From positions 544,001 to 608,000 of the forward strand of contig CAVULX010000003.1 in assembly GCA_963742415.1 (NCBI GenBank): a DNA stretch of 64,000 bases, given 5' to 3'. The position numbers and the translations under genes are program-made. Within the stretch, counting starts at the first letter, position 1; the number at the start of each line of letters is the position of its first letter. The notes beneath the pieces are model-generated. The model was not told the origin of the DNA. It did not search any database and worked only from the letters and a program-made list of their open reading frames with translations. The DNA comes from an uncultured Parachlamydiaceae bacterium. Its GTDB lineage: Bacteria > Chlamydiota > Chlamydiia > Chlamydiales > Parachlamydiaceae. Below, piece by piece: positions 19,953 to 24,449 of the stretch.

Positions 19953-20879
19953 ATGCAAGTTAATAATCAAGGTCTTACGGCCTTGCCAAACCCTGTTTTA
20001 CAAAATATCCATAAAAGGGAAAAAAAAACGAATTCACTCCCAGTAGTGGTAATGCCTTCTCATGTCTCGGATTCTGGTCAATCCTCAGGTGATTCACTAA
20101 AAACAAGAGTGAGTCGCGTTTTAACGATAAGTAACAATCTTAATAGCGGAGACAGCGAAAGTGAAGCCCAAAGCAACACGGCTTCGTCAAAAATACAACA
20201 GAATAAAGATCTTGAAGACTCTGAAGAGGTTGAATTAGCTGATATTTCTAATTCTAGCTATAGCTTTGCATCAAGAATCCAAAACACGGAGGATAATGAG
20301 ATTTCAAGCTGTCCTGACACAGACAACGAAAAAGGGGCTCAAAATATAGACAGCAAAAATAGCCCGGAAGAGAGGAAGGTAAGTAGAAGTAAAGACCGGA
20401 ACCGGATAGTACGGAACGAGAAATTGAACACAAGTACAAACACTAACCCTTCCACCATGACCATCACGGATAAGCAATTGAACACAAGTATGAACGCTAG
20501 CCCCTCCGCCATTACCATTGCTTATGACATTGAGTCTCAGAGTCAAATTAGTCAGCAGGAAGGCACCAATAACCCTAATGAGCAATCGGATGGGACCAAT
20601 AATAACAAAGTAGTTCGTTTTGATAACGTGAGCCTTGAGAATACCGAAACCAGTAGTCACGATAAAAGTATTGATGACGTTACTGGGAAAGATCAAGAGA
20701 TTGTGGATAACATGACAAATCAAATTAAGGTGACCCGGTTCAATCGTCGATGTTGCATGATTACTAAAATAGTAAGCGTCTGTTTGTGTGGTGTTTGTTC
20801 TCTTGTTGGAGCGGCTGCGGTAATTTCCATTCCTCTGGTTATTCGTTATGGAACCGGTAGCAGTGGAACGGGAGGGTAA
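19953..20879 (+). CDS. Low-complexity S/N/T-rich protein with C-terminal Cys-rich TM anchor (effector/Inc-like)
   Basis: SD GGAGG; disordered body; single hydrophobic C-terminal segment. Confidence 0.7.
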   Translation: MQVNNQGLTALPNPVLQNIHKREKKTNSLPVVVMPSHVSDSGQSSGDSLKTRVSRVLTISNNLNSGDSESEAQSNTASSKIQQNKDLEDSEEVELADISNSSYSFASRIQNTEDNEISSCPDTDNEKGAQNIDSKNSPEERKVSRSKDRNRIVRNEKLNTSTNTNPSTMTITDKQLNTSMNASPSAITIAYDIESQSQISQQEGTNNPNEQSDGTNNNKVVRFDNVSLENTETSSHDKSIDDVTGKDQEIVDNMTNQIKVTRFNRRCCMITKIVSVCLCGVCSLVGAAAVISIPLVIRYGTGSSGTGG

Positions 20880-21379: not shown

Positions 21380-21479
21380 TTTAGTTGCGTTGGACAAAAT
21401 GGACGAAGTGGACTTTGAGGAGAAGAAATTGTTGTCAAGTCGATGCTGATTTGACATCTATATCTGCAAAAAAAGAATT

Positions 21480-21674
21480 TTATGCCGTCCCTACAGGACT
21501 CTGTTTTTTTTGCATTTTACCCAGGCCTTCGCTTCGCTACGACCTGGGCTATGATATTCCGCGCCTTCGGCGCTGAAAACGGCCTGAAAGGCCGAAATGT
21601 TAAAGCCCAGGTCGTAGCGAAGCGAAGGCCTGGGTAAAATGCAAAAAAAACAGAGTCCTGTAAGGACGGCATAA
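21480..21674. repeat. Palindromic element family A copy 2
   Basis: Near-perfect long arms with internal GCGCCTTCGGCGC and GGCCTGAAAGGCC hairpins. Confidence 0.92.
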
Positions 21675-21837
21675 AAAATTTGCAAGCTTTTGAGGCTAAA
21701 AGCCCAATTCTTTGCAAATTTATTTAGATCAAAAATGCATGCATACATCATTTTCAAGGGGAAATTTCTACTAATTCAGTACCGACGGTCAATTTTGTCC
21801 ATCCTGTCCACCACGTCTATTTTTGTTCGCAAATGCA

Positions 21838-22431
21838 TTAATGGCTTAAATGGGTAAAATAGCGCTCCAGCCCTTCTTGGGAAGGTTGCATGCTTTTTTT
21901 GCCATGCTGCCAATTGGCCGGGCAGACCTCTCCATGCTTTTCAAAGTAGGTTAGGGCATCGAGGATACGCAATGTTTCATCCACAGAACGTCCCAAGGGA
22001 AGATCGTTCACAAGTTGATGCCGGACGATCCCCTCTCGGTCGATGAGAAATAATCCCCGATAAGCGATCCCTTCTTGCTGATTTAAAACGCCATAATCCT
22101 TGGATATGGTTTTGTTGAGGTCGGAAACAATCGGATAGTCGACCCCTTGGATTCCCCCTTTGCTTTTGGGAGAATTCAACCAGGCATAATGACTGAAGCA
22201 GCTATCGACGGAGCATCCGATCACCTGGGCGTTCCGTTTTTCAAATTCTTCCAACTTTTCCTGAAAAGCATGTAATTCCGTCGGACAAACAAAGGTAAAA
22301 TCGAGTGGATAAAAAAAGAAGACGACATACTTACCCCGAAAATGGATTAATGAAAAATTCTCGACGATACGGTTTCCGGTGACCGCTTTAGCTTTGAAGT
22401 CTGGTGCCGGTTTGCCGACGAGAGTATCCAT
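21838..22431 (-). CDS. ahpC: 2-Cys peroxiredoxin
   Basis: 'FYPLDFTFVCPTE' and 'GEVCPANW'. Confidence 0.97.
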   Translation of the reverse strand: MDTLVGKPAPDFKAKAVTGNRIVENFSLIHFRGKYVVFFFYPLDFTFVCPTELHAFQEKLEEFEKRNAQVIGCSVDSCFSHYAWLNSPKSKGGIQGVDYPIVSDLNKTISKDYGVLNQQEGIAYRGLFLIDREGIVRHQLVNDLPLGRSVDETLRILDALTYFEKHGEVCPANWQHGKKSMQPSQEGLERYFTHLSH

Positions 22432-22451
22432 AAAATTTCTCCTTGTTATAA

Positions 22452-23087
22452 TTATCGATCAAAAATTTGTTTCGCATTTGGAAGCCAAGATTCTTTCTTG
22501 ATTGTGGTGGAAGGACCGTGCCCGGGGTATACAGCGGTATTTGGAGGGAGGTGTGATAATTTATCTAAAGAGGTCCACATCAGCTCGGGTTGTGAAGTAG
22601 GGAAAGAAAGGTTGCCGATAGATCCTTTGAATAAAGTATCGCCGGAAAAGAGGACCCCTTGTTCTTTCGCATACAAACAAATCCCTCCTGGAGTATGTCC
22701 CGGGGTGTGAATGATATGGAATTGAAGTTGCCCGACCTGCACAAAGGCGCCATCATTTAAAAATCCGTCAGGGGTAATCCCCTCGATCGAAAGCCAGCAA
22801 GGGAGGCCGTCGGCGCCAGGTTGCTCCAAATTGGGGGCATCCAGGGAGTGGATAAAAACTGGAATTTGATAGAGGGCTTTTAGGGGGGCGACATCGGCAA
22901 TATGGTCCCAATGGGAATGGGTGAGAAGGATCTGGGTGGGGGTAAGCTTTTGTTGTTTCAAATAGGAAGAAATAGGTCCGGAACTTTCGGGAGCTGGATC
23001 GATGATAGCAGCCATTCTTGTCGTAGGACAAGCTACAACATAGGCGTTGGTTTCAAAGGGTCCTGATGGAAAAGATTGAATTATCAT
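22452..23087 (-). CDS. MBL-fold metallo-hydrolase (glyoxalase II/YcbL-like)
   Basis: 'THSHWDHI', 'HTPGHTPGG', 'FSGDTLF', 'YPGHG'; start MIIQSFPSGPFETNAY. Confidence 0.92.
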   Translation of the reverse strand: MIIQSFPSGPFETNAYVVACPTTRMAAIIDPAPESSGPISSYLKQQKLTPTQILLTHSHWDHIADVAPLKALYQIPVFIHSLDAPNLEQPGADGLPCWLSIEGITPDGFLNDGAFVQVGQLQFHIIHTPGHTPGGICLYAKEQGVLFSGDTLFKGSIGNLSFPTSQPELMWTSLDKLSHLPPNTAVYPGHGPSTTIKKESWLPNAKQIFDR

Positions 23088-23161
23088 CGCACCGGAGAGG
23101 GTTCGAACCTCCAACCGCCCGGTTCGTAGCCGGGTACTCTATCCTATTGAGCTACCAGTGC
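23088..23161 (-). tRNA. tRNA-Arg(ACG), CCA not encoded
   Basis: gcactgg/ccggtgc acceptor stem, cccgg-ctACGaa-ccggg anticodon arm, ggaggTTCGAAccctct T arm. Confidence 0.97.
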
Positions 23162-23210
23162 AAAAGAGAAAAACTATCATGCAATATTAGATTATTTTTC
23201 TCAAGCAAAA

Positions 23211-24449
23211 TCAGGCTGTTGGTGCTTTCATATCAATCATATCAGCAGAATACTCCTTGGGTAGCGGGAGGGGTCTCTTTTGTTTGGATTCACATTTTTG
23301 CATCAGGTATTCTGCAAGTTGGAAAGGCATAGTTGCTCTCGGGATGGCTTTCATGATGAGATGATTCTTTTGTATTTCACTATCGTTTTCGATTTTTTCT
23401 CTCAATTTCGCTGGATCTTTTAAAACTGTTTCCCATTCAGCATCTTTTTCCTTAGCTTGAACTAAAACTGTTTCCTGTTCATCATCTTTCCGCACTTTTT
23501 TGGCAATTTCGGCAGATTGGAGGATCCGTGTCACAAACTCGGAACAAATCATCTTTTGCAGGTGTCCTTTACTGTTTTTTATAGGTGTTTGATTATTAGA
23601 CAAATCGATAAATGCTCTGGCTGTGGATTTTCGTACCATCTTATCTCTAATTGGCCTTAACCATTTGATGAAGCTGCCGTTGCCGAACAGGGGAGTGAAA
23701 CCTCCTCTCAAATAATAGAATTTGGGTACCTCTTTGTACGATTTTCCGCCTTTAAATAATTCTATTTCATCAATAGTCGCCGTTCTGGAAAAGTCGCTTA
23801 TCAGTTTTGCGTCCTCGCTAGGCGGGACAAAAACAACGAGATGGGAATAATCATCAGTCCCGAGCTTCCAAACTTTGGTTCTTAATCCAGTGGATCCCGA
23901 TTCTGAAACCCAAACAGCCTTATCTTTTTCCCCTAGTTTAATCTCATAGTCACCAAGTCTTTCGATTTCAGTTTGCAAAATCTTTTTGTGATTTCTTTTA
24001 GAGGGCCAAGAAAGAAAGTTGAACCCATAATGTATTTCTTTGAGTTGCTCTTCTTTTTTTAATTTAAGCTCGTTAGCTTCGTCTTCATTTTTTTGTGAAA
24101 AAGGGCCTTGCAAAACAAAAGCATGCATCAGTTCTGCTTTCTTAAAGACTTTATCATTTAAAAGCGTTTTTTTCCCCTCAGGATAATGCTTTTTCACCAT
24201 GCTTTTTGACGTCTCGCTAGGAACTCGATCGTAACGTGAGCCAAACCACATCTTCATGGTTTGGAATATCTTGATGACAGTGTGGACTTTATCCCTTTTA
24301 TACCAGGGATTCTTATCGATCCCTACCACAACGGCACCGTTGAGTTCCCCTCTATTTAGACGCTCTTTGAGTTCTCCCCAATTTACCTCATTTTTAATCA
24401 CGTGCATTTCCCAGCCTGGGAATTGCGCTTTCATTGAAATTTCATTCAT
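23211..24449 (-). CDS. Hypothetical protein, possible permuted papain-like (NlpC/P60, YiiX-type) enzyme
   Basis: 'MHAFVL' upstream of 'MICSEFVTRILQSA' and terminal 'TMPFQL'. Confidence 0.55.
   Translation of the reverse strand: MNEISMKAQFPGWEMHVIKNEVNWGELKERLNRGELNGAVVVGIDKNPWYKRDKVHTVIKIFQTMKMWFGSRYDRVPSETSKSMVKKHYPEGKKTLLNDKVFKKAELMHAFVLQGPFSQKNEDEANELKLKKEEQLKEIHYGFNFLSWPSKRNHKKILQTEIERLGDYEIKLGEKDKAVWVSESGSTGLRTKVWKLGTDDYSHLVVFVPPSEDAKLISDFSRTATIDEIELFKGGKSYKEVPKFYYLRGGFTPLFGNGSFIKWLRPIRDKMVRKSTARAFIDLSNNQTPIKNSKGHLQKMICSEFVTRILQSAEIAKKVRKDDEQETVLVQAKEKDAEWETVLKDPAKLREKIENDSEIQKNHLIMKAIPRATMPFQLAEYLMQKCESKQKRPLPLPKEYSADMIDMKAPTA

Follow-up and report, generated by a model that had tools for sequence, protein, structure and literature searches.

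Transcripts of animal mitochondria are reportedly punctuated by tRNAs, a scheme said to go back to Ojala, Montoya and Attardi in 1981. A bacterial junction of comparable form lies in the DNA analysed here, a stretch of 64,000 nucleotides (referred to throughout as the window) from an uncultured Parachlamydiaceae bacterium, an amoeba-associated chlamydia (positions 544,001 to 608,000 of contig CAVULX010000003.1, assembly GCA_963742415.1). On the minus strand of the window, the gene for tRNA-Arg(ACG) runs directly into the ATG of a hydrolase gene, which is followed in turn by an ahpC-like gene, and maturation of the tRNA probably also generates the 5' end of the hydrolase message. As in mitochondria, no spacer separates the tRNA from the coding sequence, cutting the tRNA out with RNase P and RNase Z would fix the mRNA's 5' end at its AUG, and the predicted mRNA is leaderless and devoid of a Shine-Dalgarno site. 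Unlike mitochondrial punctuation, the arrangement concerns one junction among 36 tRNA genes and is not the organising principle of the genome. The tRNA sets only the 5' end of the message, the second cistron keeping a normal Shine-Dalgarno sequence, and the system belongs to the bacterial cytoplasm and includes the addition of CCA.

Protein genes sharing a transcript with tRNAs are familiar from E. coli, for example downstream of the tRNA cluster that precedes tufB. Chlamydial tuf is likewise described as co-transcribed in an operon (in the available part of PMC3333780). In these cases, as predicted here, a protein gene rides on a tRNA promoter; the difference is that their mRNAs keep a 5' untranslated region with a Shine-Dalgarno sequence, and tuf in the present genome starts well after tRNA-Thr. 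Leaderless mRNAs produced by transcription that starts at the AUG itself include that of lambda cI, are abundant in Actinobacteria and Deinococcus, and in Chlamydia comprise three and five cases (accessible portions of PMC2817459, PMC3333780 and PMC9031893). The species predicted here resembles them in starting with AUG and in lacking both a 5' untranslated region and a Shine-Dalgarno sequence, but its 5' end would come from processing and carry a monophosphate, in contrast to the 5'-triphosphate of the promoter-made messages. In the part of review PMC9031893 that is available, the only processing route named for leaderless mRNAs is the disputed MazF model, and the word "RNase" is absent from that text. 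A further comparison is with the dicistronic tRNA-snoRNA and tRNA-sRNA precursors of plants, Nanoarchaeum and Thermococcus kodakarensis, for which release by RNase Z has been proposed (excerpts of PMC4247193). There, too, a single transcript holds a tRNA with a functional RNA immediately after it, which the RNase Z cut is proposed to free; however, those RNAs are small, non-coding, and archaeal or eukaryotic, whereas the present locus is a bacterial protein operon in which the cut would also create a translation start. No bacterial mRNA that owes its lack of a leader to the processing of a tRNA 3' end was found in the full-text literature searched, subscription journals lying outside its scope, and none is described in the available portions of PMC4681348, PMC3848588, PMC4633059, PMC4247193, PMC4007540 and PMC9031893.

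The tRNA gene matches Rfam RF00005 from end to end (model positions 1-71 of 71), scoring 60.8 bits where the gathering score is 29 (E 8e-13), and this match yields a 7-bp acceptor stem, G1-C72, with G 23088 as the discriminator. ARAGORN identifies the same tRNA-Arg(ACG) with ends at 23162..23087, each one base off relative to Rfam; the Rfam ends were adopted because with them the acceptor stem has its canonical 7 bp. In minus-strand orientation, the junction is ...GGAGGTTCGAACCCTCTCCGGTGC-G-ATGATAATTCAA, so that the discriminator is followed at once by the ATG and no CCA is encoded. Upstream of the start codon, the sole purine-rich run is a GGAGG; it makes up the T stem's 5' strand and stops 20 nt short of the ATG. 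At this position most relatives have AGAGG or AGTGG, indicating that the run is not kept as a Shine-Dalgarno site. The hydrolase gene thus combines an AUG start with the lack of a Shine-Dalgarno site, as leaderless mRNAs do.

Three lines of evidence agree on the N-terminus of the hydrolase. Pfam Lactamase_B covers residues 9-190 (E 1.8e-33). In the nearest solved proteins (PDB 7ev5, 2zwr and 2xf4, about 210 amino acids each; E 1e-37 to 1e-30), the alignment sets in at their own residues 3-8 and at residues 4-8 of the hydrolase. Finally, the orthologues align from residue 1. The initial annotation, made from the sequence of the window, had described a zero spacer, a missing CCA, the want of a usable Shine-Dalgarno sequence and a hydrolase beginning at this ATG; the observation is confirmed, and every detail of it was correct.

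The host genome (2.69 Mb in 4 contigs) contains 36 tRNA genes, 35 of which lack an encoded CCA, tRNA-Arg(TCT) being the only one to have it. The gene for tRNA-Arg(ACG) is present in a single copy. As it also encodes no CCA, every functional molecule of this tRNA must be freed at the junction. In B. subtilis, precursors lacking CCA are cleaved by RNase Z after the discriminator. The genome encodes a full-length RNase Z (G000:C4:89163-90038), whose score of 303.2 bits with TIGR02651 exceeds the cut-off of 292.95. Full-length copies are also present in 39 of 41 relatives; G011, which is 68% complete, and G016 are the exceptions. Two genes of the PF01743 CCA/poly(A)-polymerase type are also found, either of which could supply CCA addition.

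An open reading frame (ORF) of at least 45 amino acids begins 0 nt past the discriminator at only one of the 36 tRNA genes, that for tRNA-Arg(ACG). Punctuation as a genome-wide principle was rejected on this count, and the likeness to mitochondria drawn in the initial annotation stands as regards the conserved zero spacing described below but overstated its scope. Elsewhere in the genome, tRNA-Trp(CCA) (G000:C4:456412-456484, outside the window) is followed after 1 nt by an ATG whose frame is shorter than 45 codons, and 6 nt separate tRNA-Thr(GGT) from an ATG that shares the reading frame of tuf, the conserved tuf N-terminus MAKETFQR coming 17 codons later.

The junction recurs widely in related genomes. 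A hydrolase orthologue was found in 39 of 41 of them, and in all 30 loci of a first set, comprising one locus per genus, the gene immediately before it on that strand is tRNA-Arg(ACG). These 30 loci were combined with 80 from named genome records, and the resulting 110 were scored by script. Setting aside 12 exact duplicates, one sequence that was too short, L051 (no tRNA within 1,500 nt) and L106 (no start) left 95 unique loci. The tRNA is directly upstream, in the same orientation, in 96 of the 97 unique loci with enough upstream sequence, and the spacer measures 0 nt in 40 of the 95. Of 401 genomes of the order, 70 have the tRNA 3' end joined exactly to an ATG and none matches the reverse-read control; the hydrolase is present in 307 of 400 (E <= 1e-40). 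Thirty-nine junctions from 12 other family codes were fetched beyond the earlier set, and 38 of them open a hydrolase orthologue; these 38 proteins align from residues 1-6, four of them running off the contig end. With loci L026 and L029 included, the zero junction was verified in 14 family codes, among hydrolase orthologues that are 47-70% identical. This comparison argues that the junction is not a product of chance, and we claim that it persists over deep divergence; the conservation of zero spacing among other Chlamydiae, which the first reading of the locus had named as a check, is seen in part of the relatives.

Several loci depart from the pattern. In L028 (G003:C3) the zero-spacer ATG is kept and a frameshift follows after about 8 codons, so that the script scored the spacer as 20 nt. 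In L120 (G259:C241) the junction ATG opens an unrelated frame of 64 codons. In genome G189 (L051/L159), locus L051 carries the hydrolase without a tRNA within 1,500 nt. The contigs of L042, L073, L088, L089 and L106 carry the chlamydia-type unit under the titles of Nitrosopumilaceae, Verrucomicrobiota or Planctomycetia metagenome-assembled genomes, which likely reflects mis-binning or mislabelling. With the query used, no hydrolase was found in any of five genomes of the small-genome family f35; consequently, the published chlamydial 5'-end maps, in which the leaderless genes are other ones, cannot address the hydrolase locus. A look-up of RNA sequencing runs for window positions 21800-23700 returned none.

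Economy favours a scheme in which tRNA maturation and message formation would be one event. We consider it probable that one promoter drives tRNA, hydrolase and ahpC, and that an RNase Z cut after the discriminator frees a leaderless 5'-P-AUG mRNA. In this scheme, a promoter ending some 14 nt before the tRNA would transcribe tRNA-Arg(ACG), hydrolase and ahpC as a single unit, and RNase P would remove the short 5' leader of the tRNA precursor. RNase Z would then cut directly 3' of the discriminator G 23088, as expected where no CCA is encoded, and the CCA-adding enzyme would complete the tRNA. The same cut would leave the downstream RNA beginning at A 23087 with a predicted 5'-monophosphate, that is, as a leaderless bicistronic mRNA. 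Its first cistron would be initiated by the leaderless route, with the ribosome and fMet-tRNA assembling on the 5'-terminal AUG, and ahpC through its own AAGGAG. The unit's second gene does have a canonical ribosome-binding site, and the first has none. Having neither promoter nor ribosome-binding site of its own, the hydrolase gene would be locked to the tRNA gene, which would explain their pairing across the order.

Leaderless translation needs a 5' phosphate and declines with the distance of the AUG from the 5' end (available part of review PMC9031893), and differential RNA sequencing detected three leaderless mRNAs in C. trachomatis and five in C. pneumoniae (portions of PMC2817459 and PMC3333780). 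Chlamydial ribosomes, on the latter reports, do translate leaderless mRNAs. The processing mechanism suggested in the initial annotation is partly supported: all of its premises at the level of sequence hold, and the comparative data strengthen the idea much.

The lengths of the spacers bear on this scheme in both directions. In the 95 unique loci, the spacer is 0 nt in 40, 2 nt in four, 3 nt in one, 8 nt in one, 12-35 nt in 38 and more than 50 nt in 11. The sample was widened by fetching the upstream regions of 80 more orthologues, picked from the order-wide list for lacking the zero pattern. Nine of these had no tRNA within 400 nt, one lay at a contig end (with a 1-nt spacer by eye) and 19 were duplicates, leaving 51 new loci: two with 1 nt, one each with 2, 3 and 5 nt, two with 6 nt, one with 9 nt, 36 with 15-37 nt, six with 44-69 nt and one with 162 nt. 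Spacer states are thus known for the fetched loci, a further 161 order-wide hydrolase matches lying outside the sample. In the two sets together (146 unique loci), 15 have spacers of 1-9 nt and 74 of 12-37 nt. The distribution is two-peaked, at 0 and at 12-37 nt, and lengths in between are few but do occur. A claim that no spacers exist between 4 and 11 nt was weakened when the wider sample gave lengths of 5, 6, 6 and 9 nt. Free variation of the spacing, which had been named as a finding that would undo the processing idea, describes the data in range only (0 to more than 800 nt); the lengths are strongly peaked and in that respect not free.

A Shine-Dalgarno-like 4-mer lies 3-12 nt before the start in 18 of the 39 loci with a spacer of 8-35 nt, against 3.5 expected from shuffles. 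It follows that relatives with room for a ribosome-binding site use one, which zero-spacer genes cannot do. Among spaced loci, L085, L094, L096, L097, L030 and L077 have a run of 6-8 T right after the tRNA, which together with the acceptor stem could form a partial terminator ahead of the hydrolase.

A number of observations weigh against release of a leaderless message as the reason for the zero junction. All 15 loci with spacers of 1-9 nt, including those with 5, 6, 6, 8 and 9 nt, lack a Shine-Dalgarno sequence, and their existence means that the AUG need not be exactly terminal. Deletion bias meeting an absorbing boundary, and not selection for zero, could account for part of the pile-up at 0; that loci become fewer from 0 to 1-3 nt and again to 5-9 nt agrees with the distance rule of leaderless translation, and also with a neutral boundary. 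The first 42 nt of the coding sequence are weakly folded in zero-spacer and spaced classes alike, and are no weaker in the former (median -3.35 against -3.2 kcal/mol, p 0.7). Zero-spacer starts are all ATG, which does not discriminate between the classes since non-ATG starts are rare in spaced loci as well (five seen). Finally, a quick protein tree built from 93 rows requires 11 changes to or from zero spacing, only two of which are forced by well-supported branches; because this tree is poorly resolved, no number of origins is claimed beyond at least two.

Some of these same facts would be expected if the precursor were translated uncut. In that case the 30S subunit would load the internal AUG by Shine-Dalgarno-independent, S1-type binding to an A/U-rich start, RNase Z would be irrelevant or a competitor, and zero would simply be the point at which deletion bias stops. 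Such a mechanism gains from the motif-less spacers of 1, 2, 3, 5, 6, 8 and 9 nt just mentioned and from the 21 of 39 spacers of 8-35 nt that are also without the motif, a situation which implies that Shine-Dalgarno-independent initiation must operate in this group. It gains further from the A/U fraction of 0.76 at +4 to +18 after the AUG, combined with weak folding, and from the peak at 0 that an absorbing boundary predicts. Nevertheless, the AUG directly adjoins the acceptor stem of a cloverleaf that is stable and fully conserved, and no single-stranded stretch is left upstream for the 30S subunit. Moreover, a transcript is of use only once the sole tRNA-Arg(ACG) has been cut out of it, so that the precursor should be short-lived, and the rarity of 4-11-nt spacers relative to 0 and 12-37 nt is not what a mechanism indifferent to length would predict. 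On balance, translation of the uncut precursor seems unlikely, though it is the most serious competitor of processing by RNase Z.

The main route of tRNA 3' maturation in E. coli is a cut further downstream followed by exonucleolytic trimming. Were an RNase E/G-type cut and trimming to operate at this locus, the start of the message would be destroyed, each transcript would yield either tRNA or mRNA, and the hydrolase would be made only from transcripts that escaped processing. The sequence contains nothing against such an outcome. The E. coli route, however, serves tRNAs that encode their CCA, whereas 35 of the 36 tRNA genes here do not and RNase Z is present, as in nearly all relatives; survival of a wasteful arrangement across 14 family codes, in 70 of 401 genomes, is also unlikely. 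We therefore regard this either-or scheme as improbable, and more so than translation of the uncut precursor. Least credible of all is that the gene has its own promoter inside the tRNA gene, or another start codon, and that the abutment is without functional meaning: a promoter-like TTGTCC-18-TATCAT (23031..23002, within the coding region) and an in-frame TTG at 23114 might be so construed, but the former lies downstream of conserved residues 1-24, which are covered by Pfam and by PDB homologues, and the latter, within the T arm, is peculiar to this window, relatives showing no conservation of it. In none of the 40 zero-spacer loci does the tRNA contain a promoter-like site placed to start transcription at or near the ATG, and in the window positions -12 to -7 before the ATG are CTCTCC. 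Release of the hydrolase message by RNase Z thus remains the preferred reading.

The coordinates of the unit and of its surroundings are collected in Table 1. The hydrolase scores 113.3 bits against NCBIfam GSH_gloB (TIGR03413, glyoxalase II), below the equivalog cut-off of 200.8, and for this reason is named only as MBL-fold and glyoxalase-II-like. Its partner, which begins twenty bases past the hydrolase stop codon, likewise scores below the NCBIfam cut-offs for PRK15000 (233.7 against 301 bits) and TIGR03137 (152.6 against 272 bits). The grouping of the two genes into a hydrolase-ahpC unit, already proposed for the window, extends to 74 of 92 loci, in which ahpC lies downstream on the same strand.

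Table 1. Features of the tRNA-Arg(ACG)-hydrolase-ahpC region, in window coordinates.
Feature	Position	Strand	Basis or remark
Promoter-like site TTGAGA-17 nt-CATGAT	23176..23204	-	Consensus scan; ends 14 nt before tRNA 5' end
tRNA-Arg(ACG), 74 nt	23161..23088	-	Rfam RF00005; ARAGORN anticodon acg
Hydrolase ATG start codon	23087-23085	-	Adjoins discriminator, 0-nt spacer
MBL-fold hydrolase, glyoxalase-II-like (YcbL-sized), 211 aa, motif THSHWDH	22452..23087	-	Pfam Lactamase_B
Shine-Dalgarno AAGGAG	22439..22444	-	7 nt before ahpC ATG, seen in sequence
2-Cys peroxiredoxin (AhpC-like), 197 aa	21838..22431	-	Pfam AhpC-TSA (E 4.7e-39) and 1-cysPrx_C
Inverted repeat, 91-nt arms, 91% complementary, 17 nt apart	21478..21676		Begins 162 nt past ahpC stop
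Terminator-like hairpin with T run	21667..21655	-	Inside large inverted repeat

The TTGAGA-17-CATGAT site is presumed to be the promoter of the whole unit, a function assigned from its sequence and position. An arrangement of the form CTTGnnAAAA...-10 is visible ahead of the tRNA in most relatives, and with a strict promoter scan 24 of the 95 loci show a site whose end lies 4-22 nt ahead of the tRNA, against 3.9 expected from shuffles. The sequence upstream of tRNA-Arg(ACG) is otherwise not conserved among relatives; in the window it includes an ORF of 412 amino acids (23211-24449, minus strand) that ends 49 nt before the tRNA and has no match to a Pfam or NCBIfam family. At the other end, the large inverted repeat, with its candidate terminator hairpin, is a possible end of the unit. 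This repeat (21478-21676) contains look-alike short ORFs on both strands and could be either a large terminator hairpin or a small mobile element. Farther downstream, on the plus strand, an ORF of 308 amino acids (19953-20879) encodes a protein that has a high content of Ser, Asn, Thr and Asp and is hydrophobic over a stretch at its C-terminus.

Bacterial leaderless mRNAs are thought to come from promoters that start at the AUG. If release by RNase Z is correct, tRNA punctuation would not be confined to organelles. The conserved junction would then offer a natural and easily testable processing-made leaderless message, since the maturation of an essential tRNA should leave 5'-P-AUG. There are practical corollaries as well: gene callers and operon predictors should permit a coding sequence to adjoin a tRNA gene directly, and mRNAs of this kind would be lost from 5'-end maps restricted to primary ends. 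For the organisms themselves, the proposed processing explains the lasting linkage of a tRNA with an unrelated enzyme gene over deep divergence. A bolder extension, put forward tentatively and with more doubt than confidence, is that across the whole order the tRNA gene may serve as both promoter and processing signal for the operon, with the RNase Z cut of the sole tRNA-Arg(ACG) precursor making the leaderless mRNA for a detoxifying hydrolase and a peroxiredoxin, and so tying their synthesis to tRNA transcription and to the rules of leaderless translation. Should this extension hold, tRNA punctuation of the mitochondrial type would have its first natural and conserved example in the gene expression of free bacteria. 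In E. coli, leaderless translation rises with (p)ppGpp and with oxidative stress (available part of review PMC9031893), a response that would fit an antioxidant operon.

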